DNA of 64,000 nt from a virus. Its lineage: Duplodnaviria > Caudoviricetes. Position numbers and translations under genes: made by a program. This document shows positions 18,691-59,874 of the stretch, one piece after another. How positions within the stretch are numbered: the stretch's first letter is position 1; every line of letters starts with the position of its first letter. The notes beneath the pieces are model-generated. The model searched no databases and was not told the origin of the DNA. It saw nothing but the letters and a program-made list of their open reading frames with translations. Where the stretch lies: the IMG/VR virus record IMGVR_UViG_3300032116_022045; one strand, given 5' to 3'.

Positions 18691-18983
18691 TTTGTTTTTA
18701 ATGTTTCAATTTCTACTAATAATTCTTTAACATCAAATTTATCCATTTTTTGAAAGTTTTTATATTTTGTTTTAATTGTTGAATTAAAAACAGAACCATT
18801 ACTTTCAGCCAATTCAAAACTATTGTAATCAATAGAATCAACATTATGATATTTGTATTGACCACCATTTTTAAAAATTATTGTTAAATCAAAATTATTT
18901 CTGTCGTACACTGATGCACAAATGTTTGATGAATCATAAATAGCTTTTATAATTCCCTTTTGTTCTTCTTTTTTTAATACCAT
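18687..18983 (-). CDS. KTSC domain protein
   Basis: DSSNICASVYD...LTIIFKNGGQYKYHNV...AESNGSVFN pattern. Confidence 0.7.
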   Translation of the reverse strand: MVLKKEEQKGIIKAIYDSSNICASVYDRNNFDLTIIFKNGGQYKYHNVDSIDYNSFELAESNGSVFNSTIKTKYKNFQKMDKFDVKELLVEIETLKTK

Positions 18984-20908
18984 TTTTATTTATTTATTAC
19001 AAATATACTAATAATATTTTATTTACACAAAAAAATATTTAAATAATAGTTGCGTAATATTTTTATCATAAAACCGTGATATAATTACCTATATATCATT
19101 TAGTTATAAAGATGTATTGCGTATAGCCTGTTGTTATAAACAATAAAAAACCTTAAAGTGGTGGTTCTAAATTATCTTTTATCTTATCATAAGAATCTTT
19201 AATCGCATCTGAAAGTATTTGTTCAATAGGTTTTTTACTATTTATAACAACGGATATATGAAATAAAAAATTAATAGATTCTACAAACTTTCTAATTTCT
19301 TCCTCCGATTTACATTCTCGTTGAACAACACAAAATTCACCTCTTACCACTTTACAAGTTTGGGTTTCTATGTTGTAATAAAGTATTGGTAATCTACAAG
19401 AGTTTCCACATATTTCAGTATCTTCTTCACCTAAAACCCAAACTTGTTTTCCAGAGAATACATCAACTATCTCTTTGAATCCTAAATCTGTTAAATTTTG
19501 TGTTGTTATCATCGTTCTAATTATTAATTTTTTACATTCATATATCCGCAACCGTTATAAAACATAAAATTATAATAACATCAGTAAACAAATTAATGTA
19601 CATACCGTTATTATCATAAGTGCGATTTTTTCAGTCTTATCTATTTTCATAATTTTACGATTTTATAACAAGGTATATGTGAAATACCTCATAAGGTTTC
19701 TACTAATTATTTAAGTTTCGCGGTTAGGTACTTCACATATACCCAACCGTTAGTGGCAATTTTGACGATGTATCTCATCACCGATAGCTTGTAATCTTTT
19801 GACATCTTCTGCATCCCATAAGTAAATTCGGCAGTTAGTTTCTTTTCCATCTTTAATAATTGGTGCAAATCTATCTTTACCCATATCACCGATAGAAAAA
19901 CTGCCACTAACATCGGTTTTGCAAAAAAGCCGTTTTAGTGCTAATTTTAATCTTTTCATTTCTATTGAACTTTTGTTGTTAATTGAACATTTGTTTTTCA
20001 AAATCGGCTTCTTCGCAAAGCCGTAAACGTTAGTGGCAATTTTGCTCACCACGCTTATAAACCATCTCTTTGTTTTCGTCAAAATGTAAGTCATATTCTT
20101 TACAAAAAGACCTAACCATTTTTCTAAATTCGTGATATTCCCAAGTTGTTAAGTCGTGCTTATCAAACAACAACCTCATTTTATACAATAATCCATTAGG
20201 TCTTCTTGTAAATTCATCTTGATAAAAACTGCCACTAACAGCACCTAAATCGCTATTGGCGGTTTCTTCTGTATTCAAATTTTCGTGTTCCATATTATGT
20301 TTATTTAAAATTGATAATTTAGTGTTCCAAATCGCCAACAGCGTTTAGCTGCGGCACGTTATAAGTAATTTTTAGTTACTCCTTATCATATTATCTTCTT
20401 CAAGAAAAAACATTTCCAATGCCGTGTCATATCCTTTACCCTCTTCCACTATCATAATATACTTACCTTCGCCATAAGCTACAGTAGCATTTTTATCAAC
20501 AATGAATTTAATCTTCTTACCTTCATACTTATTATGATAATGTAAGAAAAAACTACTTATAACATCAGATATACCCAATTCGGGGTTATGTGTTTCATTT
20601 GAGTTTTGTTCTTTATCAACCATTTTATTTATTATTTCTTCTTCTCGTTTATTTTACGTTTTTATTTTTTTTATTTTTGGTATGTCGTGAAATATGGTTT
20701 CTTTTCGTATATTATCGGTTATTATCAATGAATTATAATGTAAACTTATATGAACATTATTATATGTAACTGACCTACATTCAAAATCAACTGTTATAGT
20801 TTCATATGACTTGTTAAAAATAGTTTTATCTTCCATATAACAAAAATACTACTATTTATTATAAAAAACAATTGTTAAGATAAAAAAAAATATTGTATAT
20901 TTGTAACT

Positions 20909-39868: not shown

Positions 39869-40407
39869 TATACTATCTTCTCAATATTTCTTATAACACC
39901 ATCACCCCATATACAACCACTAGCAACATCCCATGTGTAATACCACTCAATGGTCCTCCTAGCTTCATAAATATATGGCGCAATCTCAATCCCACCATAA
40001 TCATTAGCAACCTTACCCCAATCTATTTTAGTATATGTATCATAACCAAACTTATATGGTACACCATATTCTTTATCAAATTCCGTTATTTCTTCATAAT
40101 TACGTATTATCAAAATATTTGATTCATTAATATCAATCTTAAATACATTATCAGTTTCCCAATCTGGCATTTCACTTTTTACCCAATCAACCCATGAACT
40201 ACCTATACCATACCATAAACCCCTTGGTTTAAACCTAATCTCTTGCGAACTATTAGGTGTTGGCCTGAATTTAATCTCATCCTCATGTGACATTATTATC
40301 CTAGTATCAGAATATTCAGTAGTTAATTTATTATATACGTCAGAACTAACTTCAGTCATAACCTTATTATATATCTTTCCTATCTTCATATCTCTTTTAA
40401 ATATCAA
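39868..40407 (-). CDS. Hypothetical late protein
   Basis: ORF track; late-type motif at about 40408. Confidence 0.7.
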   Translation of the reverse strand: MIFKRDMKIGKIYNKVMTEVSSDVYNKLTTEYSDTRIIMSHEDEIKFRPTPNSSQEIRFKPRGLWYGIGSSWVDWVKSEMPDWETDNVFKIDINESNILIIRNYEEITEFDKEYGVPYKFGYDTYTKIDWGKVANDYGGIEIAPYIYEARRTIEWYYTWDVASGCIWGDGVIRNIEKIV

Positions 40408-40443
40408 TTATAAATATACAATATTTTTTAAATAACAACACCA

Positions 40444-40575
40444 CCCTAATATTTAAACCCAAAAAATTCTGGAAATTTTTTTTTAAAAAAAGGGACCCTA
40501 ATATTTAAATCCAAAAAATTCTGGAAATTTTTTTTTAAAAAAAGGGACCCTAATATTTAAACCCAAAAAATTCCC
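40444..40575. repeat. About 2.5 tandem copies of a 52-bp repeat
   Basis: Unit CCCTAATATTTAAA(C/T)CCAAAAAATTCTGGAAATTTTTTTTTAAAAAAAGGGA at 40444 and 40496, partial copy at 40548. Confidence 0.9.
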
Positions 40576-40623
40576 CAGAAAAATTTTGCGAATCCTATTG
40601 TACCCCACTTTTAACCTGCACCA

Positions 40624-40670
40624 GGGGGGTATATGTAAGGGGGGTAACGGGAGGGGGGGTATATAGGGGG
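40624..40670 (+). other. Four long G-tracts (potential G-quadruplex)
   Basis: G6 at 40624, G6 at 40639, GGGAG7 at 40649, G5 at 40666. Confidence 0.7.
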
Positions 40671-40846
40671 TACCCCTTATTTATAGCCCCTACATTGCAT
40701 TATCTTTATAGTAGTGGTATCTTCCTATCAAAACTATATCAAAGTCGTTTATATCGCTTTATTTTAAGATATTAATTAATTATCATATGATAGGGTAAAA
40801 AAAAGGTACTGAATATTCAGTACCTTTATTTCGGTTATCGGAATTT

Positions 40847-41407
40847 TTACAATTCCAAAGTTTCACCATTGGTGCGAACTTCGCCTATTGAGGAAATTAC
40901 GTATTGGGTATATTTCCCTGTACGTAATAATTTTCTCAATTCATTTTTAGCAATTGTAATAGGTTTTGAATTTACAATAGGATAATTCCCCTCTTGTAAA
41001 ATTGTCTTATTTTCCCGATACCCGAAAATGTAAATATCCCCTGTTTGATTGTGTACTTTAACGCCCTTAATGATATTAGTATAGGCGTTTATTTGACCTT
41101 CACTTCGATTAAAATCAGGTTTCTCAAAGGATTCAATTAAGGTTTGTTTAGCCTCAATTAATAGAGCCTTAGCCGACTTAAATTCAAATTCATTTGAATC
41201 CAAATCCAAATTTTTAAGAAACTCAATATCTCGTTCCTTAGCCTTAGAATAGGATGCACCAACATTAATTAGGTGATTGGCAATTTCTCCGTACTTATTA
41301 GTGTAAGAACGGATTGAAACGAATGTTACATTTGTTTTACTTGTTGCTTTTTTCAAAGCAATAACCACATCTAATGCGGTTGATTTTGTTGATACTTGCT
41401 GTTCCAT
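40847..41407 (-). CDS. Early hypothetical protein, copy A (paralog of 51438-51998)
   Basis: Long identical peptide stretches shared with 51438-51998. Confidence 0.85.
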   Translation of the reverse strand: MEQQVSTKSTALDVVIALKKATSKTNVTFVSIRSYTNKYGEIANHLINVGASYSKAKERDIEFLKNLDLDSNEFEFKSAKALLIEAKQTLIESFEKPDFNRSEGQINAYTNIIKGVKVHNQTGDIYIFGYRENKTILQEGNYPIVNSKPITIAKNELRKLLRTGKYTQYVISSIGEVRTNGETLEL

Positions 41408-41580
41408 TACTAAAATGTTTAAAAGGTTAAATTAAATTGAACACTACAAAAGTATAGGAAATATCAATACCAATAACATACATAACCACATTTTTATCCA
41501 CATATTTTAATTATTAATTGTGGATAAATAGGGTTAAAAAAATTAGGTATTGTCAATTAATTCCCTTAATATTGCAGTGT

Positions 41581-41637
41581 AATTCAGTTACTGAATTAAG
41601 GGTCGCTGGGAAGCGAGAGAGTGTACTCCATCCTGGC
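41581..41637 (+). ncRNA. Repeated ~55-nt structured RNA, copy 1 of 8
   Basis: Hairpin-AAGGG-hairpin-GAGAGT(A/G)TACTCCA-CCT; promoter upstream. Confidence 0.65.
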
Positions 41638-43278
41638 TTTTATTTTATATATAAAATAAAATTAATACGAGAAATGAAATATATAATACAAGAAATGAAC
41701 TATATAATACGAGAAATGAATAATAAGGTTGATAGAATATACCAACCTTATTATATTTCATAAAGTGAATTATTTAAAAATTGGATTATTTAAGTTTCTT
41801 ATTCTTTTTTATATGCGAAATAACCAATAACAATACAGGCTATTGCTTCAAAAAATCCGACCATAATGATTGAAGGTATTTTACCAACACTAATAACATA
41901 GTGAATGGATAAACCAATAACAATTGAGCCGACAAGGATTAAAAGGACACCAATTATTTTCATGATTACAAAATTAAATTGTGAATTGAATATGCAAATA
42001 TACTAATTAATTTAATACGTGCAACAATTATTTAAAATAAATGTACACATTTGTGTATGCAATTAAATTCATATAATAAGATAAAATAATAAGGTTGATT
42101 AATGTAACCAACCTTATTAATTACCTTATCTTAATTAAGACAGATTTCTAATTTATTTTCTCTCATAAACGCCATAAAAGGGGTTTCCATTTCAAATACC
42201 TTTGAGAAATTGTTATAGGGGATATCATTAAGGAACAATGCCAAATGACCAATAACAACATTAAGATTTGTTTCAGGATTGGCGAAATAAAAGTTTTGTT
42301 CAACCTTATCTTTACAAAACTTAAGGGTTTCAGTTGTTGATGCCCCTTCACCGAATATAGTATCATATTCGACTTTAATTACCCACAACCTTTTTTTGAG
42401 TTGAACTAACTCAAACGAATCAAGATTAATTTTTTCCATTGTTATTTTGTTTTAAGTATTAAACGATAATGCAAATATAAAACAAATAATTGATATAACC
42501 AAATAAAAAAATTATTTTATTGAATGTGCGTAAACATATCCAATGGTTAGTTCATTAATAATGAATCATCACATCTACAAATCAGGCATTCGCACCATTT
42601 ACATCTTTCAACCACACCACCCAAACTACCATCATCTTCGAGTTCCATTGTTAATCTATCCTCCTTATCAATTTCTCGTTGTGATATTCCGTATCCTAAT
42701 ACAATTGGTGTATCATTTTTCATTAACCATAACGCACTTGCAGGTGAAATTCTTGTAGTATTATTTCGTTTTTCGGGTGTAACTGTATTCCAATATCTAT
42801 CCTTGCAAACAGTTCCTTTTTTTGATTTACAAAATGCTTGTTGGTAGTTTGTTTTAACAAATTCAGTTTCACAACTTGGGCATTTACACGTTGAACCAAC
42901 TTTTGCTAATTTCGCATTTTCGTATAATTCTTTAATCTTTGCCATTATTTTTTAATGTGTTAAACGATAATGCAAATATAAAACAAATAATTGATTCCAC
43001 CAAATATTTTAAAAAAAAAAACCCTATCCATTGCAGATAAGGTTTTTTTTCACTTTAACCCAAAAAAAAAATCCAATTAATTATTGCTCGTTGTTTCTGT
43101 AATAATTGGATATGCAAAGATAACAATTATTTTAATACCGCAAACATTTTTTTACATTTTTTTTACATTTTTTTTAATTCATATAATATGATATAATTCA
43201 AATATAATATATTTTAATTTTCGTAATATATTATTCAAATTATGAATTAGTTATTATTCATATTAAAAAATATCATGT

Positions 43279-43333
43279 AGGTTGGAGTATACTCTCTCGC
43301 CTTGTTAGGGCAACCCTTAATCCTTATCAGATT
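43279..43333 (-). ncRNA. Repeated ~55-nt structured RNA, copy 2
   Basis: Same motif; TTTG...TATCTTTAC promoter. Confidence 0.65.
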
Positions 43334-43879
43334 ACATTGTAAAGATACAAGGAATATTTGACACCACCAAATAAAATGTAAAAAAAATAACAGATATTCT
43401 ATTATTTTTTTTAGGTTATTTGGATTAAAAATTAATTAGAATTTAGATAGTTCCCAAATTACTAATCCAATGATTCCGATAACACCGAATGATATTGACA
43501 ATAAGACGATGTTTTTTTCAAGTTTGTTTTCCATTGTTGTTATATTAAAGTGTGTGATTGATTTATTTTTTGAAATAGGCAAAATAACTCATAATGATAC
43601 AAGCAATTAATTCTATGACCCCTATTGACAGGATTACAGGTTCATTAAACCCAAATAGGTATAAATGATTGATTAATACGATTAGTAAATAAACACCTAT
43701 AATTGGTGCTACAATACCGACAGAAGTTAAAATACTTTTAATGTTTTTCATGATGTTGTTTTTTGTTTGACTATACAAAGATAAAACAAATATTTGATAT
43801 ATCCAAATAAAATAAAAAAAACCCCATCTTTTTACAGACAGGGTTTCTCGTTCACAACTTAACCAAAAAAAAAATTAGC

Positions 43880-43967
43880 AGTCAGGACAGGATTCGAACC
43901 TATTAGGAGTTATTGACTATTACCTCCACCGCTCACTCGGTGCGTCTACCAATTCCGCCACCTGACC
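43880..43967 (-). ncRNA. tRNA-framed RNA T1 (88 nt; Leu-like D arm, non-canonical anticodon arm)
   Basis: GGTCAGG-TG-GCGGAATTGGTAGACGC...AGGTTCGAATCCTGT-CCTGACT. Confidence 0.8.
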
Positions 43968-44119
43968 ATTTTATTTACAATACAAAGATAAAACAAATAT
44001 TTGATATATCCAAATAAAAAATAAAAAAAACCCCATCTTTTTACAGACAGGGTTTAACCTTAAAATTATTAAACTTAAAACATAATACAAAGATACAACA
44101 AATATTTGATATAATCAAA

Positions 44120-44896
44120 TTATTTGTTATAAATTTTTAATAGTTTATTAAAAATACCTTCTTCGCTTAAATGAGTTAAGTCAATACCATTTGTTGCTTC
44201 AATTGATAGGTTTTTATACATTTTACTATGTTCATACCTAATACCAATAGTAAGCATAAGACGCATAAACATTTGATTCACTTGTCTTGTAGGGGGTAAA
44301 AATCTGTGAACATCAACAAGGCAATTAAGTAAAAATTCAGCCCTTTCCCTATCTTTTATTACAAAATCACCTTTTTTAACAATTCTAACAGCAGTAGTTC
44401 TACGTTTAACTTGTAGGTAAGCCATTGGGATAACAGACGATTGAATGTGATTTCTGTAAATGTGTTTAATTGAGTTTTGAAGCGTGAAATAATCTTTATT
44501 TCCTGTTTCTTTCCAACTATTGATAAAATCATCGAATGACCATTTTTTCCCTGTGTTATTTGTATCAATCATTAATTGTACAATTTCAGTATCTGTTTTA
44601 CATTCAACAATACGACATTCAATAGGTAAATTAAGGCTTACCATTGCTCTAATTAAATGTTGTCCATCAACAACATACAATTTATTATTAGGTTTTCTAA
44701 CTAATAAAACTTGTCTTGTTTGTCCGTTTCTTTTTACCGATTCAACTAACTCTAAAACAATCTTTTGGTTAATAGGTCTGTTAAAAGGTAAGATTAACAA
44801 TGAAGCATAATCATTAACTCCAATTGTAATTGTCTTGTTTGTTTTTACTTTGTTTTTCATGTTTCTTTTTCCTTTAAGTGTTAAACAATGGGTCAA
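44120..44896 (-). CDS. ParB/Srx-like domain protein
   Basis: LYVVDGQHL motif. Confidence 0.65.
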   Translation of the reverse strand: MTHCLTLKGKRNMKNKVKTNKTITIGVNDYASLLILPFNRPINQKIVLELVESVKRNGQTRQVLLVRKPNNKLYVVDGQHLIRAMVSLNLPIECRIVECKTDTEIVQLMIDTNNTGKKWSFDDFINSWKETGNKDYFTLQNSIKHIYRNHIQSSVIPMAYLQVKRRTTAVRIVKKGDFVIKDRERAEFLLNCLVDVHRFLPPTRQVNQMFMRLMLTIGIRYEHSKMYKNLSIEATNGIDLTHLSEEGIFNKLLKIYNK

Positions 44897-45026
44897 AGTA
44901 ACTACTTTTTATTGAGAAAAACAAATTTTTGTTTAAATTTTTTTAAAAAAAATTAAATAAAAAAAAACCCCATCTTTTTACAGATAGGGTTTCTCGTTCA
45001 CAACTTAACCAAAAAAAAAAATTAGC

Positions 45027-45125
45027 AGTCAGGACAGGATTCGAACCTGTGGTAGTTAGATATTGATATCACCCTATCATCTAACCACTTCTTAGGTGAA
45101 GCAGATACCATTCCGCCACCTGACT
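45027..45125 (-). ncRNA. tRNA-framed RNA T2 (99 nt)
   Basis: Same acceptor and T arm; long variable hairpin GGTTAGAT/ATCTAACT. Confidence 0.8.
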
Positions 45126-45136
45126 ATTTTAATAAC

Positions 45137-45245
45137 TTGGACGTGCTACCCATTACACCAACCTTGGGATTCGAACCCATATCTTCGGTACAACCGACGC
45201 ATTACCCATTATGCTATCACCGAGAATCGAACTCGGACTTTCCAT
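45137..45245 (-). ncRNA. Double-elbow tRNA-like RNA (T arm, D arm, anticodon-like arm, T arm, D arm; no acceptor stem)
   Basis: See findings. Confidence 0.65.
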
Positions 45246-45249
45246 TCGT

Positions 45250-45323
45250 AGTCAGGACAGGATTCGAACCTGTAAATGAATCAGACTAATGCAGACTCTG
45301 CGATACCATTACGCCACCTGACC
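45250..45323 (-). ncRNA. tRNA-framed RNA T4 (74 nt)
   Basis: Same acceptor and T arm; irregular anticodon arm. Confidence 0.8.
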
Positions 45324-46429
45324 ATTTTATTTACAATACAAAGATACAACAAAGTTTTGATATATCCAAATAAAAAATAAAAAAAACCCCATCTTTTTAC
45401 AGACAGGGTTTCTCGTTCACAACTTAACACTAAAACAAAAACAAACAGAAATTATCTTTTATAGGCAACATAACCCATAGTAAAACACCCAATTGATTCA
45501 ACAAGACCAACCAACAAAAGTAAAGGTAACTCAAGACCAAACAACATAATATGATGAATTAATAACACCATAATAAATGTTCCAACAAACATTAAAAGAA
45601 CCCCAATTTTTTTCATAACATTTTTTTATTTACACTACAAAGATACAACAAAGTTTTGATATATACAAATAAAATTTAAAAAAACCCCATCTTTTTTTGA
45701 CAGGGTTTTTTTCTCTCTCGTTTTATATTTCTTTTGCTAATTTAATATAATCAGCAACTTCATCAGCAGAGCAATAACCTTTAACCAAATCATTACCAAA
45801 GTCATAAAATTCACCATTAGGTAAGATTATTGCTATTTCAGCATCAGACGATTCAACCATTGTTTTACCATTAGAAAAATCATAACCATCAGGATGATTA
45901 TCGTAATTATCACAATAATTACGATACCCGAATTGAACTGAAATTGTGCAACCATTTTCAAAAGTCATTTGAAAACCTTTGTTTTGTGTAATTCTGAACA
46001 TTGACATACTTTAAATTGTTTAAGTGTTTAACGATACCACAAAGATATAACAAAGTTTTGATATATCCAAATAAAATTTTTAATTTTTTTTTCACCAAGT
46101 CATTAATGCGTATGGATTGTAGTTTTGATAACGCAGTTCATTAAAAAGTGTATTAAACACATTTTTGCTAACTTTAAATGTTGTTGTGTTTTTTGTTGAT
46201 TCTTCAAACTTCAATTTTTTGTTCGGAATCATTGACTGAATCAAATCTTCGTTTTGTTTTGCGATTAGAACTATCATGTTATTTTAATTAAGTTTTTAAC
46301 GATATGACAAAGATACATAATTTATTAATACCACCGACATAAACCACCATATTTTTTTTTAACTTTTTTTTTAAAAAAATATCCTAATTAATTTTTTTAT
46401 TCCAATTATTCCTTGTATCTTTACAATGT

Positions 46430-46484
46430 AATCCAATAGGGGATTAAGGGTCGCTTGAAAAAGTGAGAGAGTATACTCCAACCT
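46430..46484 (+). ncRNA. Repeated ~55-nt structured RNA, copy 3
   Basis: Same motif. Confidence 0.65.
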
Positions 46485-46565
46485 ACATAATGTTTTTTTA
46501 TATAAAAAATAATAAAATTGAATAGATTAATCAGATTAACCTATTCAATTTCATTATATGAAATA

Positions 46566-47012
46566 TTATTTACTTCTACAAATAGGCCCTAAACCAATTT
46601 CGATACTATTTGCATCAGTTAATTTTTTGCCACAAACAAGGCAAGACCCTGTATGAAAAACCTCAATTGAATTATCCAACAAATTAAAGTTTTTCTTTTG
46701 AACATTATCTAAAGTCCATGCAATTGCTTTTGCCGAAGCGGAATCAATAATTTGTCCTTTATTGATTATTTTGCCATGCGAGAAAAAACCTAATCTAATG
46801 TAATTTTGATACTCGGTTTCAACCTTAACATGAGTGTACCAATTCCCTTTAAATAAAGAACGGCTAATTTTATAGGTATAGTCCTTACCTGTCCTAAGTG
46901 ATTTAATGGTAAATTCAGAACCATGGTTATTAGCCTCACGATTAATAACCTCAAATAACGAAGCGGATGAAATTTTGTGTGCCATATTGTTTTTGTTAAT
47001 TTGTGAACACAA
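46566..47012 (-). CDS. DUF6011-like Zn-finger protein
   Basis: CLVCGKKLTDANSIEIGLGPIC. Confidence 0.65.
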   Translation of the reverse strand: MCSQINKNNMAHKISSASLFEVINREANNHGSEFTIKSLRTGKDYTYKISRSLFKGNWYTHVKVETEYQNYIRLGFFSHGKIINKGQIIDSASAKAIAWTLDNVQKKNFNLLDNSIEVFHTGSCLVCGKKLTDANSIEIGLGPICRSK

Positions 47013-47089
47013 AGATATATAAACTAATTTAATTAAACAAGCATTTTGTAAAAAAAATTAATTAATTTTTGTTAAAAAAAATATCATGT

Positions 47090-47144
47090 AGCGTGGAGTA
47101 TACTCTCTCGCCTTGTTAGGGCAACCCTTAATCCTTATCAGATT
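47090..47144 (-). ncRNA. Repeated ~55-nt structured RNA, copy 4
   Basis: Same motif. Confidence 0.65.
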
Positions 47145-48052
47145 ACATTGTAAAGATACAAGGAATAATTGACACCACCAAATAAAATGTAAAAAAAAAC
47201 CCATCTTTTTACAGACAGGTTTTTTTGAATGGAATTATATTTTATAGTACAAAGATACTACAAATAATTGACACTACCAAATAAAATGTAAAAAAAAACC
47301 CATCTTTTTACAGACAGGTTTTTTCGTTCACAACTTAACCAAAACAAAAACTTAATTAAAAATCATCTTCATTAAAATCGTCATCATCTTCATAGTTATC
47401 ATCATAGAAATAACCTTGAAATTCGCATGATTCACAACCTGTTTCATCATACACCCAATTTTCAGGTTTCTCAACCAAATTAGGGTATTTTACACCTTTT
47501 GTACCATCACCATTCGGATTATCTTTAAAGGCGATATTAATACCTTTACTTCTCACTTCATCGGTATATTCTTCACCTTGTAAGGTTGATGTAACACCAT
47601 TCATTTCAGCGAGTAATTCATAATAATCCTTACCACCAAATACACCACAACCATCATATTCGGTTTCCACCCATTGATTACCTTTATCATCTAACATAAC
47701 CACCTTAAAAGGTTGTCTGTTTGAGTGAATGTTTGGGATACTTTTATTAGTATCCATTGTTTTCCAACTGAAAAATCCCATAACTTTAATTTTTTTTAAG
47801 TGTTTAACGATACCACAAAGATAAAACAAAATTTTGATTCTACCAAATAATTTTACAAAAAAAGTAAAATAATTTGTATCACCCTTAAAGCAATTGCAAC
47901 GATACCAATAAAGACCGCCACAAAAAAGATACCATCCTGAATTTTCTGTTCCATATTGTTTTTAATTAAATTGTGAATACAAAGATATATAAACTAATTT
48001 AATTAAACAAGCATTTTGTAAAAAAAATTAATTATAAAAAAAAATATAATAT

Positions 48053-48108
48053 AGGTTGGAGTATACTCTCTCGCCTTGTTAGGGCAACCCTTAATCCCTT
48101 ATTGGATT
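48053..48108 (-). ncRNA. Repeated ~55-nt structured RNA, copy 5
   Basis: Same motif. Confidence 0.65.
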
Positions 48109-48932
48109 ACATTGTAAAGATACAAGGAATAATTGACACTACCAAATAAAATGTAAAAAAAACCCATCTTTTTACAGACAGGTTTTTTCGTTCACAACTT
48201 AACCAAAAAACAAAAATTTTACTATTGAAATTCTATTTCAAAATCCTCCACAATTTCTTTTTGTTCATCTGTTAAAGGTTCATCTGAAATAAATTCAATG
48301 TAATACCTTGTGTAAGGGACACCCATTAAAAATTCTTCAACAGATAAATTAAATTCTTGTTTATCCCTTGCCATTATTGTTGTACCAATATGCTCTGAAC
48401 TATTTTTGTCAAAAGCAAATAACTGAACTTTAACCATGATTATTTTTTTTTAAGTGTTTAACGATACCACAAAGATACTACAAAGTTTTGATATATCCAA
48501 ATGTTTTCATTCTATATCACCTTGAATTTTTTGATAAATGTTAGCAAGGTTTAAGATATCCTGTAAACAATCAATTGATAATTCTTCATAAGTGAAAAAA
48601 TCAACAGACCTTTCATTTTCATCACCATTTAAATATAAATAACCATTAACACCATTTAACATAAATTTTTCACCAAGCATGATAGCAGAACCAAGCTCTC
48701 CAATTATAGGTGATGATTCACTTTCAACATCAAATGTTGTAAACATACCAAATTCATCAATAATATTTTTTATTGCTGAAATGATTTCATTTTTTTCTTG
48801 ATTGGTTTCCATTTTAATTATTTTTTTTAAGTGTTTAACGATACCACAAAGATAAAACAAAGTTTTGATTCTACCAAATAAAAATTAAAAAAACCCTAAC
48901 TTTTTTTTGATAGGGTTTTTTTAATTAACTTA

Positions 48933-49697
48933 TTACTTCAACCGCTTTATTATTATTAGAGCCATTGAGCAGGTATCATGATATTCAAATATTTCTTCTA
49001 TTGAATAATTGAACCCACAAACTTTTGAGAAAAATGTTTTAAAAGCGTGTATTGTTTCAATATCATTTTCATTCTTAATTAACCTTTTCATTTCACCATA
49101 AACCTTAGATGATTGACCAAGTTTATTAATTCGCTTTGATAAGGTTATTGCAACAATACCACCAACTTGCACGATATTAGCCTGAAACATACTTTTCATA
49201 TCTTCAACGATAGTACCCAATTGACAACAATAATCTAAAATAAGATGATTGTATTTGTCTTCATGTGCTGTTTCTAATTCATATCCAATATCACCCAACA
49301 TTGGATATATTGGTAATTTATGTTTTTGGATAGTTTTAAACATTTTCCAATAAACCTTTTCATCCCTTTCATATCCGATAAAACTAAATTTCTTTCCAAT
49401 TTCGGATAATATTTGCTTTTCAATATTACATTTTGAAAAGGGTAAGGATAATATTTTTCCTGAATTAAGACCGCTTTTGTAAATGTGTTTAATAATGATA
49501 TTTCTTGCTTTTTGCTTACCATTCCCATTTTCATTATTAAATGCCCCTACACTCTTTTTAATTCCTTTTTTCTTACGATAAGCAATTAAATTTGCTGATG
49601 CCCTTTGTTTGCTAAGCCCAAATTGTTTAACCAATTTTGAATTTGTCGCATAAGGATTGTTTTTAATCCATTCTTGAATTTCTTGTTTTGTTACCAT
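48933..49697 (-). CDS. Possible SAM-dependent methyltransferase-fold protein with an N-terminal HTH-like segment
   Basis: ILSLP...FIGYERD...LILDYC pattern; weak. Confidence 0.35.
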   Translation of the reverse strand: MVTKQEIQEWIKNNPYATNSKLVKQFGLSKQRASANLIAYRKKKGIKKSVGAFNNENGNGKQKARNIIIKHIYKSGLNSGKILSLPFSKCNIEKQILSEIGKKFSFIGYERDEKVYWKMFKTIQKHKLPIYPMLGDIGYELETAHEDKYNHLILDYCCQLGTIVEDMKSMFQANIVQVGGIVAITLSKRINKLGQSSKVYGEMKRLIKNENDIETIHAFKTFFSKVCGFNYSIEEIFEYHDTCSMALIIIKRLK

Positions 49698-49854
49698 TGT
49701 GTTAAATTGTTTAATTGTAAAACGATATGCAAAGATAGGACTTATTTTGATACCACCAACAAAAAACCAAAATTATTTTTAATTAATTTTAACTTTTTTT
49801 TCTTGCAATTGTCAATAATTGGTTATACTTTTGTAATGACATTTTTTAATCACT

Positions 49855-50034
49855 ATGGAATTAAATAAAGCAGTTGAAATCTTAATGCACAACCACCGAT
49901 TCAAATTGGGTAAAACAAGTGAACAAAATTTCACACCTCAAGAAATTAATCGTGCAATGAATGTATTAAGCCACTATAACGAAACACAACGGAGATTGAA
50001 TACCTACGAGAAAAAAAATCTTAATTGTGGATAA
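49855..50034 (+). CDS. 59-aa protein MELNKAVEILMHNHRFKLG..., against the orientation of the region
   Basis: Manual translation; TACTTTTG -7 box upstream. Confidence 0.5.
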   Translation: MELNKAVEILMHNHRFKLGKTSEQNFTPQEINRAMNVLSHYNETQRRLNTYEKKNLNCG

Positions 50035-50098
50035 ATAAATTCAAAATTTATCCTAATTAATTTTTTTATTCCGATTATTCCTTGTATCTTTACAATGT

Positions 50099-50152
50099 AA
50101 TCTGATAAGGATTAAGGGTCGCTTGAAAAAGTGAGAGAGTATACTCCAACCT
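50099..50152 (+). ncRNA. Repeated ~55-nt structured RNA, copy 6
   Basis: Same motif. Confidence 0.65.
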
Positions 50153-50634
50153 GGCTTTTATTTTTTTATATAAAAAATAATTATTTCATAAATTGAATTA
50201 TTTAATTTATTAATTAATACGAAAAATGAATAATAAGGTTGATAGAATATCTACCAACCTTATTATTTTTTAATTTGATTATTTACGTTTTGTAAATATA
50301 TCAAATGTAGCAGTTATACCAATAAAATATTTATCAATATCAATTGAATCACCGCCACAACCACAATCGCACCCTAATTTAATTTCGTACTTTTTAATGT
50401 ACTTAATTAAATCAATTCCGCTAATAATATCATCTAACGGAATTTCAGTAAAGGTTGAATAAATTTCTAACCTCTTTTTAATCGTTTTGTTTTTCAGGTA
50501 GTTTGTCATAATGTTATTTTAATTAAGTGTTGAACGATGATGCAAAGATATGTATTATTTCAATACCCCCGACATAAATTAAAAAAAAAACCCTATCTTT
50601 TTTTGATAGGGTTTCCAACCAATTAACCCACTAT

Positions 50635-51102
50635 TTAATACCTCTCTTTAAATTCAAGCAATATCTTATTTTCCCAACTTTTATGTGCTTGACATCTACA
50701 CGCCCTTTTTACCTCTTTTAATTTAATCCTTGCCTTTTCGTATGTTTCACCACAACCGCCACAAACCGCAAAGTATTTTAATTTAGGCGTATTAACTTTA
50801 TCTGAATCATAACATCTCTCAGGTTTTGCACCTATCTTAATACAAACCAATTTCCACTGATAACCATGATGGGCTTTAAACCCTGCAATAGCATGGGCAA
50901 TTTCATGTAGGATTGTATCTTTGACTATTTCAAGGTCATTTAAACGAGTTAAATGCTTTGACAATTGAATAGACTTGTTTCCATAGGAACAAACGCCAAA
51001 CGCCCTTAAATGATTGTTAAATTCAAAACGCCAACCCAATTCCCAAATACCATGTTGTTTCATTAAAGAAACCGCCAAATTTTCTGCAACTGATAATTCC
51101 AT
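50635..51102 (-). CDS. SprT-like zinc metalloprotease
   Basis: DTILHEIAHA...HHGYQWK...IGAKPERC; C-terminal CxxC. Confidence 0.85.
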   Translation of the reverse strand: MELSVAENLAVSLMKQHGIWELGWRFEFNNHLRAFGVCSYGNKSIQLSKHLTRLNDLEIVKDTILHEIAHAIAGFKAHHGYQWKLVCIKIGAKPERCYDSDKVNTPKLKYFAVCGGCGETYEKARIKLKEVKRACRCQAHKSWENKILLEFKERY

Positions 51103-51238
51103 AATGTTTATTTTAATTAAGTGTTAAACGATAAGGCAAATATAGGGAATATATTAATACCACCGACATAAAATTAAAAAAATATTTTTTTTCTTAATTG
51201 TTTGGAATTGTCAAATATTGGTTGTAATTTTACAATGT

Positions 51239-51291
51239 AATCTGATAAGGATTAAGGGTCGCTGACAAAGTGAGAGAGTATACTCCAACCT
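51239..51291 (+). ncRNA. Repeated ~55-nt structured RNA, copy 7
   Basis: Same motif. Confidence 0.65.
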
Positions 51292-51437
51292 GGCTTTTAT
51301 TTTTTTTATATATAAAATTAATACGAAAAATGAATTATTTAATTATATTAATAATACGAAAAATGGAATATATTAAAATAAAATAATAAGGTTGATAGAA
51401 TATTCCATCAACCTTATTATTTCAGATTCCGTACTAT

Positions 51438-51998
51438 TTAAAGTTCCAAAGTTTCACCATTGGCACGAATTTCCCCAACATTATCTAATACATATTGGGT
51501 ATATTTCGATGTCCGTAGTAACTTACGAATTTCATCCTTTGCAATTGTCAAAGGTCTTGACTTAACCACAGGATAAACACCATCCTGTAAAATAGTCTTG
51601 TTTTGGCGATAACCATAAACATAAACCTTTCCAGATTCATTATGAACCTTAACACCATCTACAATGGCTGTATAAGCCTCAATTTGCCCTTGGCTACGAT
51701 TCTCATTAGGATTCTCAAAAGATTCAATTAAGGCTTGTTTAGCCTCAATTAACAGAGCCTTAGCCGACTTAAATTCAAATTCATTTGAATCCAAATCTAA
51801 ATGTTTCAAAAACTCAATATCTCTTTCCTTAGCCTTAGAATAGGATGCACCAACGTTAATAAGGTGATTGGCAATTTCACCATATTTGTTAGTGTACTTA
51901 CGGATTGAAACAAATGTTACATTTGTTTTACTTGTTGCCTTTTTCAAGGCTACAACCACATCTAATGCGGTTGATTTTGTTACTTGCGTACTTTCCAT
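51438..51998 (-). CDS. Early hypothetical protein, copy B
   Basis: Paralog of 40847-41407. Confidence 0.85.
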   Translation of the reverse strand: MESTQVTKSTALDVVVALKKATSKTNVTFVSIRKYTNKYGEIANHLINVGASYSKAKERDIEFLKHLDLDSNEFEFKSAKALLIEAKQALIESFENPNENRSQGQIEAYTAIVDGVKVHNESGKVYVYGYRQNKTILQDGVYPVVKSRPLTIAKDEIRKLLRTSKYTQYVLDNVGEIRANGETLEL

Positions 51999-52200
51999 AA
52001 ATGAATTAGTTAAGAGTGAAATTTAATAGTACAAAGATATAGGTTATTTCAATACCACCGACAAACAAAACCACATTTTTATCCACATATTTATCCACAA
52101 TTAATCATAAGAATATGTTAATAAGTGTGTTGATAAATAGGTTAAAAATTTATCTTAATTAATTTTTTTATTCCAATTATTCCTGGTATCTTTACAATGT

Positions 52201-52255
52201 AATCTGATAAGGATTAAGGGTTGCCCTGACAAGGCGAGAGAGTGTACTCCAACCT
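52201..52255 (+). ncRNA. Repeated ~55-nt structured RNA, copy 8
   Basis: Same motif. Confidence 0.65.
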
Positions 52256-52600
52256 GGCTTTTATTTTTTTTATATAAAAAAATAATACGGATTTTGAATT
52301 ATTTATATTTTAAATAATACAATTATTGAAATATATATTTCGTAAATTGAATTATATAATTATTGTATATTATAGTATATTAAATTATTTCAATAATTAA
52401 AATATATATTTCGTAAATTGAATTATCTATTTATTGTATATTAATAATTTTAAATAATTTTTATATTTTAAATTATATCCAATATGTAATATTTTATTTA
52501 TTGAAGTATTTACTTTATATATTTTATATGTTATATATATTATATATTAATATACATTATAATAATTAATATATACACAATTGTGTATAATATATTAACT

Positions 52601-52970
52601 TAAATTAAGATAATCACCAATATCAATAAACTAAGTTAATACTAATTGCCAGAATCATCATAAACCCTATTTTTAGCCTGTCTGTTAAACTTTAATCGTA
52701 AAATGATATGTAGATATGGAATTAATAAAATAATTCAATACAAGGCAAAAAAAAGGGAATTGTTACATTCCCTTTTTAATTTAATTAAGATAATTACCAA
52801 CATCAAAAAACTAACTTAATACTAATTCCCAGAATCACCATAAACCCTATTTTTAGCCTGTCTGTTAAACTTGAATTGTAAAATGATAGATAGATACGGA
52901 AATAATAAGATAATTCAATACAAGGCAAAAAAAAAGGGAATTGTTACATTCCCTTTTTTAATTTAATTAA
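52601..52970. repeat. Two tandem ~180-bp repeats, each with a terminator hairpin
   Basis: Period 180 (52601 and 52781); AAAAAAGGGAAT-TGTTAC-ATTCCCTTTTT in both. Confidence 0.85.
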
Positions 52971-52978
52971 ACCTAAGT

Positions 52979-53899
52979 TTAATTTGTGGCGAAAATTAAT
53001 TCATGTGCCTTGGCGTTCATTTCACTTGCTGAAGCATAAAGTAATTTTTCAATGTTACCCTTTGCAAGTTCATGAGTAGTATATCGAGTAATACCCTGTA
53101 ATAGGCTGAAAGCATTATTACCTGTATTTTGCATCTCAATAGCAATTGAGTTATTTACAGAATCTAAGATATTACGGGAACGAGTGGTAAGGTCTGAATA
53201 AGCCTTAACATCATACCCTGTAAGTTTAGTTAAAAACTTATCAATATCGGATTGAGTAATTTGCTTTAAGGTAGCATCATTCAAACAATTAACATAATTT
53301 TCAGTCATTGAAATAACTTTGAAAATTTCATCTGTGAATGTCATCACCTTTGCTTGGTTTTTTGTTGTATTTTTCATAGAAATAGCAACATCCTTTTGCC
53401 AATTTTTTGCACCATTGGTGCACCATAGGCGAAGAGCATAGAACCCTAATGAAATTTTTGTCATACCATCAAATCCTGTACGAAATTCCAAAGCGGTTTC
53501 AAGGGTATCACCTACCATAGGAGTTTTAATTTCATATTTTTTCAAAGGTAATCTGAAAACAACCTTACCACCACCATAGTATTCATGATATGTTAATTTA
53601 TTCAAATCAACATCAGCATTTGAACTAAGGACTGAATGTTCAATTGCATCTAAAAACAATTGAAGATTCATTGGTTCAAATACATCCCCAACGATACCTA
53701 ACGCATCACCACCCGTATTTTTGTAAATACCGAATGATTTAGGTGAATTAAATCCCTCCATACCTGTATGAAGTTGGATTTTTTTAGCGGTTAATACCTG
53801 ACTTTTCAGGTTATTAATGTGGTTTCCGCTTGACTGAATGTTAGTTAAAATGTCCATGTGTTTATTTTGATTAGAGTTAAACATGGCACAAAGATACAA
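52979..53899 (-). CDS. DUF932/DUF945-family phage protein
   Basis: LGIVGDVFEPMN...GFDGMTKIS...LRLWCTNG...GNNAFSLLQGITRYTTH. Confidence 0.75.
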   Translation of the reverse strand: MYLCAMFNSNQNKHMDILTNIQSSGNHINNLKSQVLTAKKIQLHTGMEGFNSPKSFGIYKNTGGDALGIVGDVFEPMNLQLFLDAIEHSVLSSNADVDLNKLTYHEYYGGGKVVFRLPLKKYEIKTPMVGDTLETALEFRTGFDGMTKISLGFYALRLWCTNGAKNWQKDVAISMKNTTKNQAKVMTFTDEIFKVISMTENYVNCLNDATLKQITQSDIDKFLTKLTGYDVKAYSDLTTRSRNILDSVNNSIAIEMQNTGNNAFSLLQGITRYTTHELAKGNIEKLLYASASEMNAKAHELIFATN

Positions 53900-53986
53900 C
53901 CATTTTTTTAATTAGCAATACCCTAACAAACTTTTTTTTAATTAATTTAGAAATTTAGAATCATTCTAAATAAAAAGACCCTTTAC

Positions 53987-54066
53987 TATATATATATATA
54001 TATATATATAATAAAGGGAATCTACCAGCATGAATCTACCAGCATGAATCTACCAGCATGAATCTA
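53987..54066. repeat. (TA)n microsatellite followed by 3.5 copies of the 14-mer GAATCTACCAGCAT
   Basis: Read directly from the sequence. Confidence 0.9.
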
Positions 54067-59725: not shown

Positions 59726-59874
59726 TTGTTCCTTATTCTCTTACCACTTTATATCGGAACAAACCTGCTTATCTATCAAAGTGTACTCCAAATACTGACA
59801 CCTGCTTTAGTGGGTGTACCATATACGAATATGACTCCTCTCTGAACAATACGATTTTCTCAAGGGTACAGGTT
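59726..59874 (-). ncRNA. Companion structured RNA K3 (divergent, enlarged)
   Basis: AACCTG/CAGGTT; TACC-CTTGAGAAA...GGTA; directly follows a promoter. Confidence 0.5.

Follow-up and report, generated by a model that had tools for sequence, protein, structure and literature searches.

Hairpins transcribed close to a promoter are familiar from phages, as in the put RNA of HK022 and the nut sites of lambda and P22. In Bacteroides thetaiotaomicron, FopS and GibS are small RNAs (sRNAs) from dispersed paralogous small genes, each read from its own Bacteroidota sigma-A promoter and each combining one short conserved stretch with variable parts; FopS is a chromosomal, RbpB-binding RNA catalogued in Rfam, with a canonical terminator hairpin behind its single-stranded 5′ seed (PMC11697453). 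PeSLs, in turn, are lineage-specific DNA repeats in which a terminator stem-loop is followed by an early promoter and then by the ribosome site and ATG of a gene (PMC2839356, PMC4122927). Here, we describe a unit that occurs eight times between positions 41,581 and 52,255 of a 64,000-nucleotide (nt) stretch of DNA (the window, hereafter) from the virus IMGVR_UViG_3300032116_022045 (Duplodnaviria; Caudoviricetes), and that is predicted to be a free-standing gene for a structured non-coding RNA.

The phage unit resembles FopS and GibS in its layout as dispersed paralogous small genes with their own Bacteroidota sigma-A promoters, and in having one short conserved stretch beside variable parts. 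Unlike FopS, however, its 5′ part is paired in two covarying hairpins (H1 and H2), its conserved stretch lies 3′, no terminator-like hairpin with a U-run follows directly, and it has no match in Rfam. With PeSLs, it shares a scattered location among the small orphan genes of T4-type variable regions and a promoter of the host-type early consensus, yet here the –7 box comes before the hairpins, which show covariation at the RNA level, and the unit has no attached gene, is free in its orientation, and is common to unrelated phages. The promoter-proximal hairpins recall put and nut, but the phage RNA has no boxA-like word and its H2 loop shows no conservation in the family.

While promoter-driven multicopy sRNAs are already known as a general kind, the present one is a new, uncatalogued RNA family. 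None of the eight units matched Rfam 15, either at the gathering thresholds or at E ≤ 10 with lax filters (positions 41400–52500), and the motif string was not found in the literature searched.

Eight copies of one unit in the phage window

The word GAGAGTRTACTCCA has eight mismatch-free matches in the window, between positions 41617 and 52251 (41617+, 43283−, 46467+, 47094−, 48057−, 50135+, 51274+, and 52238+), where 0.17 would be expected; none of 100 shuffles reached this number. Covariance models run over the 64 kb returned the same eight units at 64–98 bits and no weaker ones, and all eight scored 64–77 bits with a model (R2) built from relatives only. The RNA units span positions 41578–52271, with five on the plus and three on the minus strand, and are dispersed at distances of 0.6–3.1 kb, each behind its own promoter. 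Aligned together with their flanks, the copies have about 120 nt in common. A ninth match to GAGAGTRTACTCCA, at 59777, contains two mismatches and does not align beyond the motif, and was set aside as a chance match.

In the window, the order within the unit is promoter, about 5 nt, H1, AAGGG, H2, GAGAGT(A/G)TACTCCAACCT, 8–9 variable bases, and a run of 6–9 T. Boxes resembling TTTG…TAnnTTTG precede all eight copies: copies 1 and 7 have TAATATTG and TAATTTTA, respectively, as the –7 box, whose sequence is TATCTTTA(C) in the other six; four of the eight have a TTTGG about 20 nt 5′ of the box. The TACTCCAACCT part deviates in copy 1 (ATCCT) and copy 4 (CGCT). The last bases of each unit are exclusively A and T (U-run, AUAU, A-run), and GAGUAUACUC of the RNA is self-complementary. 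All eight display the features by which we define the family, namely a host promoter, H1, GGG, H2, GAGAGURUACUCC-AACCU, and a U-rich tail.

Much of what the initial annotation had read from the window was thereby reproduced, including the eight copies of one promoter-driven unit, the host-type –7 box before each copy, and the variants quoted for H1 (AATCT/GGATT, AATCC/GGATT, and AATTCAG/CTGAATT) and H2 (TCGCT/AGTGA, TTGCC/GGCGA, and TCGCT/AGCGA), all of which are present in the copies. Five of the eight copies indeed run against the local genes: the credible open reading frames (ORFs) between 40.8 and 54 kb—small, mostly without family, and counted from 50 amino acids (aa) upward—all read on the minus strand, and the five plus-strand copies therefore face gene 3′ ends. 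The proposed size of ~55 nt needed revision, since the distance from the likely start to the U-run is about 65–75 nt.

H1 and H2 covary across a wider RNA family

Most relatives were gathered with an 18-nt pattern taken from the fixed 3′ part of the unit, and R2 was built from relatives alone. A first, strict viral pattern gave no matches. The 18-nt pattern retrieved true units in IMG/VR contigs and more than 117 stretches in metagenome contigs, and the covariance model yielded 160 matches, 135 of them distinct, from viral as well as metagenome contigs, with one to eight copies per contig. Across this family, the ~20-nt 3′ module is nearly fixed, whereas the sequence of H1 and H2 is wholly different between phages with their pairing kept. 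A tiny ORF (ATGTAA) at the start of the RNA was dismissed, as relatives do not conserve it.

The window copies alone offer one fully compensatory pair per hairpin, the other changes being from G-C to G-U. The decisive covariation came from the relatives, for which 135 distinct sequences aligned to R2 were compared with 500 column shuffles and with alignments in which the 3′ partners were slid by one to three columns. Each of the six pairs of H1 and each of the four pairs of H2 showed changes on both sides. Compensatory cells numbered 284, as opposed to 98 ± 10 in the shuffles and 8–94 with slid partners, and 83.8% of the cells were paired, as opposed to 30–56% when slid. One H1 pair, for example, is AU in 37 sequences, UA in 33, CG in 25, and GC in 7; the first H2 pair, located directly between the fixed GGG and GAGAG, is U-A in 31 and C-G in 96. 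An alignment fitted to R2 favours the modelled structure, but the raw sequences show the same pattern by eye. The top mutual-information pairs are exactly those of H1 and H2, and no extra long-range pair or pseudoknot emerged from mutual information. Moreover, U-G and G-U pairs are frequent, arguing that the pairing works as RNA on this strand only.

Two further helices, GGG/CCU and GAG/CUC, are proposals of the structural model. Extending GGG/CCU by the flanking bases found no support (C-G 35 vs. C-A 29). The GGG/CCU helix is favoured by a double-module variant, in which two hairpin-plus-GAGAGUGUACUCC (also written UAGGAGAGUGUACUCC) modules are enclosed by one AAGGG and one AACCU. In this lineage (L018, L027, L030, L066, and L137), the two modules lie in series in one RNA.

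The covarying hairpins of the initial annotation, for which evidence from the window is thin, are thus upheld by the family-wide alignment, where we consider the case for a structured non-coding RNA, as judged from sequence, to be strong. Together with promoter enrichment (see below) and recurrence in many phages, this two-helix covariation supports the annotation’s view of a promoter-driven, non-coding, structured multicopy RNA; its impression that the RNA belongs to no known family was borne out by the Rfam search.

Promoters, orientation, and RNA ends

Of 131 distinct units, 56% had an exact TAnnTTTG in the 60 nt before them, compared with 8% of random windows from the same contigs, and 39% combined it with a TTTG at the right distance, compared with 3%. 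H1 usually starts 5 nt past the –7 box. Orientation varied: among 145 units, 41 read in the same direction as the genes on either side and 34 ran antisense to the two of them, the rest being mixed. Co-oriented downstream genes carry their own promoters, as is also the case for the three minus-strand copies of the window, where a T-run comes after each copy and a second promoter, serving the gene, comes after the T-run. Given this free orientation and the separate promoters of downstream genes, the unit is neither the leader nor the terminator of a particular gene.

From plus-strand copies 1, 6, and 7, the distance to the first canonical terminator hairpin downstream is about 60–110 nt, and a read-through transcript of copy 1 would end at the hairpin next to it (Table 1). 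In a freshwater metatranscriptome run (X20), 21% of the sampled words of positions 46380–48160 were present.

Table 1 Positions of the eight units and of the features that surround them
Feature	Position	Strand	Details
Copy 1	41533..41650	+	promoter (–7 box TAATATTG) and predicted RNA 41578–41650; H1 AATTCAG/CTGAATT; H2 TCGCT/AGCGA; motif GAGAGTGTACTCC then ATCCT; 75.8 bits, 63.7 bits in a second model search
Copy 2	43263..43381	−	predicted RNA 43336..43263; upstream promoter TTTGG-N20-TATCTTTA; co-directional with neighbouring genes; 94.6 bits
Copy 3	46382..46500	+	promoter and predicted RNA 46427–46500; convergent on the 3′ end of the DUF6011 gene; 91.1 bits
Copy 4	47074..47192	−	predicted RNA 47147..47074, upstream of the DUF6011 gene, whose own second promoter lies between copy 4 and the gene; tail CGCT, not ACCT; 90 bits
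Copy 5	48037..48156	−	predicted RNA 48111..48037, then second promoter and gene 47829..47356; 95.2 bits
Copy 6	50051..50168	+	–7 box 50085–50092; predicted RNA 50096–50168; faces minus-strand genes; 97.9 bits
Copy 7	51191..51307	+	promoter TTTGG…TAATTTTA; predicted RNA 51236–51307; H2 TCGCT-GACAA-AGTGA; 92.6 bits
Copy 8	52153..52271	+	promoter and predicted RNA 52198–52271, then 0.7-kb AT-rich repeat region; 95.8 bits
Two-way terminator hairpin AATAAGGTTGAT…ATCAACCTTATT	41720..41754		~70 nt past copy 1
Same two-way terminator hairpin	50229..50267		60 nt past copy 6
Same two-way terminator hairpin	51379..51424		70 nt past copy 7
DUF6011 gene	46566–47012	−	148-aa protein; between copies 3 and 4
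SprT-like gene	50635–51102	−	between copies 6 and 7
Promoter-plus-leader repeat	42445–51183	−	12 copies of ~70 nt
Terminator repeat (AAACCCTGTCTGTAAAAAGATGGGGTTTTTTT)	43805–50614	−	7–11 copies
Segmental duplication	41300–41507 / 51891–52092		82–91% identity
Paralogous 186-aa genes	40847–41407, 51438–51998		starts lie within the duplication
Word AATACGARAAATGAA	41664, 41685, 41706, 50216, 51320, 51353	+	six places with at most one mismatch
YrlA-like match	45168–45267	−	26 bits
tRNA-like genes	45026–45323		surround the YrlA-like match
Gene-free AT-rich stretch	52300–52940		directly after copy 8; two 163-nt copies at 52595 and 52775

Distribution among phages and prokaryotes

Carrier contigs originate from lakes, the TARA ocean survey, and other habitats. 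Among 50,697 deposited phage records searched with short BLAST queries, the only carrier was Tenacibaculum phage Larrie, a cultured phage with a described host (PMC10013915). Larrie (ON950054.1; 77 kb, siphovirus-type), which infects Tenacibaculum larymnensis, has its two copies at 18761–18844 and 19391–19476 on the plus strand, where there are few ORFs and the flanking genes read in the opposite direction. The unit is also carried by T4-type giant phages. Copy numbers differ between carriers, with one copy in each of three complete 299–366 kb genomes, two in Larrie, and three to eight on several short contigs. A megablast search of the same 50,697 records with positions 40000–54000 returned no close relatives.

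In 185,579 prokaryote species genomes, the 18-nt core pattern matched 25 places, 24 of which are chance matches in coding DNA. The remaining one is a real unit, complete and with a Bacteroidota promoter, on a 2.9-kb AT-rich contig that is probably phage DNA binned into a ‘Bacilli’ metagenome-assembled genome. A search of 151 Bacteroidota genomes with R2 under strict filters found nothing.

On about ten contigs, units converge in pairs, the two 3′ ends having TTTTTATATAAAAA in common as their overlap. The pairs consist of two RNA sub-types and recur every ~2.3 kb (L070, L074, L079, L114, L115, L124, L128, L159, and L164; metagenome contigs). Owing to this overlap, read-through of one unit would yield a perfect antisense of its partner.

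Searches for a partner protein and a target

The 148-aa protein encoded between copies 3 and 4 carries a C-terminal, zinc-finger-like DUF6011 motif (H-x-G-x-C-x2-C...G-x-G-P-x-C; phrog_20259), and in 16 of 17 loci a homologue (32–100% identity) is encoded no more than ~165 nt from a unit, in a position that is convergent with the unit or downstream of it. We nevertheless rejected it as an obligate partner, as the family is missing from five carriers (the three complete genomes, Larrie, and G001). A 173–180-aa protein encoded downstream of the unit in 12 loci was rejected likewise, being missing elsewhere. Only four or five proteins are common to Larrie and the giant carrier phages, with no evident RNA binder among them, and no phage protein common to all carriers was found. 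One of these few shared proteins has an SprT-like metalloprotease domain and is encoded in the window, too, between copies 6 and 7; the window protein has counterparts in Larrie (35% identity) and in two giant carriers.

On the RNA side, the 64-kb window contained no site complementary to the fixed stretch with up to three mismatches in 14 nt, except on the strand opposite the RNA genes themselves. In three Bacteroidota genome bins, a search for the complement of the fixed word produced nothing but noise. In two genomes from the Flavobacteriales-order group, the rRNA operons were complementary to the stretch within the range seen for shuffled seeds.

Possible modes of action

We favour a scenario in which each unit would be a free-standing sRNA gene, used by host RNA polymerase through a Bacteroidota sigma-A promoter (–33 TTTG, –7 TAnnTTTG). 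The RNA would start ~5 nt past the –7 box, directly with H1, and continue through GGG, H2, (G/A)GAGAGURUACUCC-AACCU-RC, and another 5–8 bases to an AU-rich stretch with a U run. Pairing of GGG with CCU would close a junction bearing H2 and a mini-hairpin, GAG-AGURUA-CUC. H1 and H2 may act as scaffolds, free in sequence as long as pairing is kept, with the fixed 3′ module as the putative working surface. Early in infection, the RNA would bind, and thereby titrate or re-direct, a component common to all Bacteroidota hosts—a protein or ribonucleoprotein machine being a likelier candidate than an RNA—and its dose may be raised by extra gene copies (eight here) or by two modules per RNA.

In its general form, action in trans on a conserved host component is, to our minds, a proposition for which the chances are evenly balanced. 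It is suggested by the coexistence of free scaffolds with ~20 near-fixed nt in unrelated phages that have only a host phylum in common, as well as by the failure to find a phage partner or a host copy and by a dose that appears to be raised through copies or doubled modules. That these nucleotides are kept nearly fixed in unrelated phages of many habitats, often in multiple copies, points to a common, important host target. We are much more hesitant about a further-reaching reading, in which the module GGG...GAGAGURUACUCCAACCU is either a new RNA effector docking on a Bacteroidota core machine or a new class of small ribozyme; this we hold as a tentative and rather unlikely idea. Candidate machines would be the ribosome, RNA polymerase, or an RNA-decay or defence complex, re-programmed during takeover.

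Several points weigh against the favoured scenario. Transcription and its early timing are deduced from the promoter, the RNA ends and the action in trans are themselves inferred, and the host partner is purely conjectural. No canonical intrinsic terminator directly follows the units, and the U-run lies 8–9 nt past the last possible helix, often in the loop of an AU-rich hairpin. Fold energies of single window copies are not better than those of shuffles (z −0.1 to −1.4). The GGG/CCU and GAG/CUC helices are invariant across the alignment and hence draw no support from covariation. Finally, fishing for most relatives with an 18-nt pattern from the 3′ module has inflated the near-invariance of this very part, and copies found by the model alone contain variants of it (AAAGGUAUACUCC, GAGUGUAUACUCC, GAGAGUAGACUCC, and GAGGGUAGACUCC).

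Among the alternatives, we rank highest a base-pairing regulator, in which the fixed single-stranded GAGAGURUACUCCAACCU would serve, in the manner of the multicopy FopS and GibS RNAs of Bacteroides, as a seed for a conserved host RNA or a phage mRNA, although we judge even this to be improbable. The seed-like conserved stretch beside variable hairpins and the multicopy layout resemble FopS (PMC11697453), and promoter and U-run fit a classical sRNA. However, the window has no complementary site and the two rRNA operons stayed within the shuffled range; in addition, ~20 fixed nt across phages of distant hosts exceed what seeds usually keep, and half of the stretch is self-complementary. A shade less probable still is a cassette acting in cis, be it a PeSL-like regulatory or recombination module by which small genes are shuffled, an insulator promoter directed against genes, or a put/nut-like leader that modifies the polymerase. 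Such a cassette would suit an early gene-shuffling region rich in repeats (12 promoter-leaders and 7–11 terminators), a 0.35-kb segmental duplication that contains copies 1 and 8 and brackets the region, and the many relatives that form convergent pairs at gene borders; HK022 put, too, has two hairpins just past its promoter. Yet recombination needs sequence identity rather than compensatory changes with G-U pairs, and three complete genomes of 299–366 kb make do with a single copy. The conserved hairpins are predicted to be transcribed, no gene comes directly after them, and those further downstream are served by separate promoters. A cis antiterminator would have no use for an orientation away from or against genes, as seen in half of the units; five of the eight window units and 34 of the 145 family units have no gene in the same orientation for antitermination to reach. 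In a PeSL, the stem-loop precedes the promoter and the unit runs into a ribosome site and start codon (PMC2839356), but here five copies face gene 3′ ends and three have a U-run and a second promoter before the gene.

More doubtful by some distance is a self-cleaving ribozyme or ligand-binding RNA, with variable helices arranged around a fixed junction core. Free helices with fixed junction strands (GGG, GAGAG, and UACUCCAACCU) are typical of small ribozymes and aptamers, and phages often carry small ribozymes; against this, no ribozyme or riboswitch of Rfam 15 matched at E ≤ 10, no gene is under the unit’s control, and neither a cleavage site nor a pseudoknot emerged from mutual information. 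The initial annotation had listed an antitoxin mimic and an anti-CRISPR RNA beside a protein sponge and a small ribozyme. As a mimic of a host defence RNA, the unit would imitate either the repeat of a type III antitoxin or, as an RNA anti-CRISPR, a solitary CRISPR repeat. Phages are known to make RNA mimics both of ToxI and of CRISPR repeats, and the many copies and the relatives with two modules per RNA would be in keeping with this. Both versions lose ground, because no counterpart of the module was found in host genomes (one real unit among 25 pattern matches from 185,579 species genomes, and nothing with R2 in the 151 from Bacteroidota) and because the copies are dispersed rather than tandem; no locus has a tandem array beside a toxin or cas gene. 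Rfam’s CRISPR-repeat models, the set compared here, did not match the units. We regard mimicry as very improbable, and place at the bottom of the ranking a replication primer or R-loop former at origins, with a strong promoter firing into an AT-rich unwinding stretch. T4 oriF and oriG work by this principle, every unit ends AT-only, and copy 8 enters 0.7 kb of AT-rich repeats; but an origin needs neither covarying hairpins nor a fixed 20-nt word across unrelated phages, and eight origins in 11 kb are implausible. Three presumed resemblances fitted poorly and were not used: that of the copy 7 H2 (CGCUGACAAAGUG) to P22/lambda boxB, that of the hexaloop to hairpin-ribozyme loop B or the sarcin-ricin loop, and that of the loop GUA/GUG to Tyr/His anticodons.

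Should the RNA be a host-directed effector after all, or a new ribozyme, it would represent a phylum-wide, RNA-based tool with which unrelated phages take over their hosts. Bacteroidota dominate guts, lakes, and algal blooms, and have unusual promoters and ribosomes without Shine-Dalgarno pairing, while almost nothing is known about takeover by their phages. With R2, genes could be annotated in phage intergenic DNA that is now seen as ‘empty’. Since a cultured phage–host pair (Larrie, PMC10013915) carries two copies, the question is directly testable.

Genomic setting and neighbouring repeats

The window is AT-rich (27% G+C) and contains tRNA genes. Two further repeats, a ~70-nt promoter-plus-leader (TTTGG...TATCTTTG TGGTATCGTTAAACACTTAAAAAAAA before ATG) and one terminator (AAACCCTGTCTGTAAAAAGATGGGGTTTTTTT), jointly frame nearly all small genes of the region (Table 1). 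It is these terminator and promoter-leader repeats, and not the RNA unit, that constitute the true counterpart of PeSL cassettes in this phage. Of the RNA copies, only those on the minus strand have a separate terminator repeat ahead of them.

The segmental duplication (0.35 kb) includes the starts of two paralogous 186-aa genes together with upstream DNA. Each of its copies precedes an RNA copy (1 and 8, respectively), and the pair brackets the RNA-rich region at a distance of 10.6 kb. Another recurring element is the word AATACGARAAATGAA, which has 12 matches with up to two mismatches, compared with 1.7 expected for that threshold. The six sites with at most one mismatch all sit past a plus-strand RNA copy and before the terminator hairpin that comes next; three are arranged in tandem with a 21-nt repeat, and each of the six contains an ATG that opens a frame of 15–30 codons into the terminator stem; AATACGARAAATGAA could be a binding site or a micro-ORF.

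Between copies 2 and 3, odd tRNA-like genes surround a weak match to Y-RNA-like RNA (YrlA), whose score of 26 bits is far under the cut-off of 69. Directly after copy 8, finally, a gene-free, AT-rich stretch contains several repeat families, including one with two 163-nt copies, and is a candidate origin or other DNA site.

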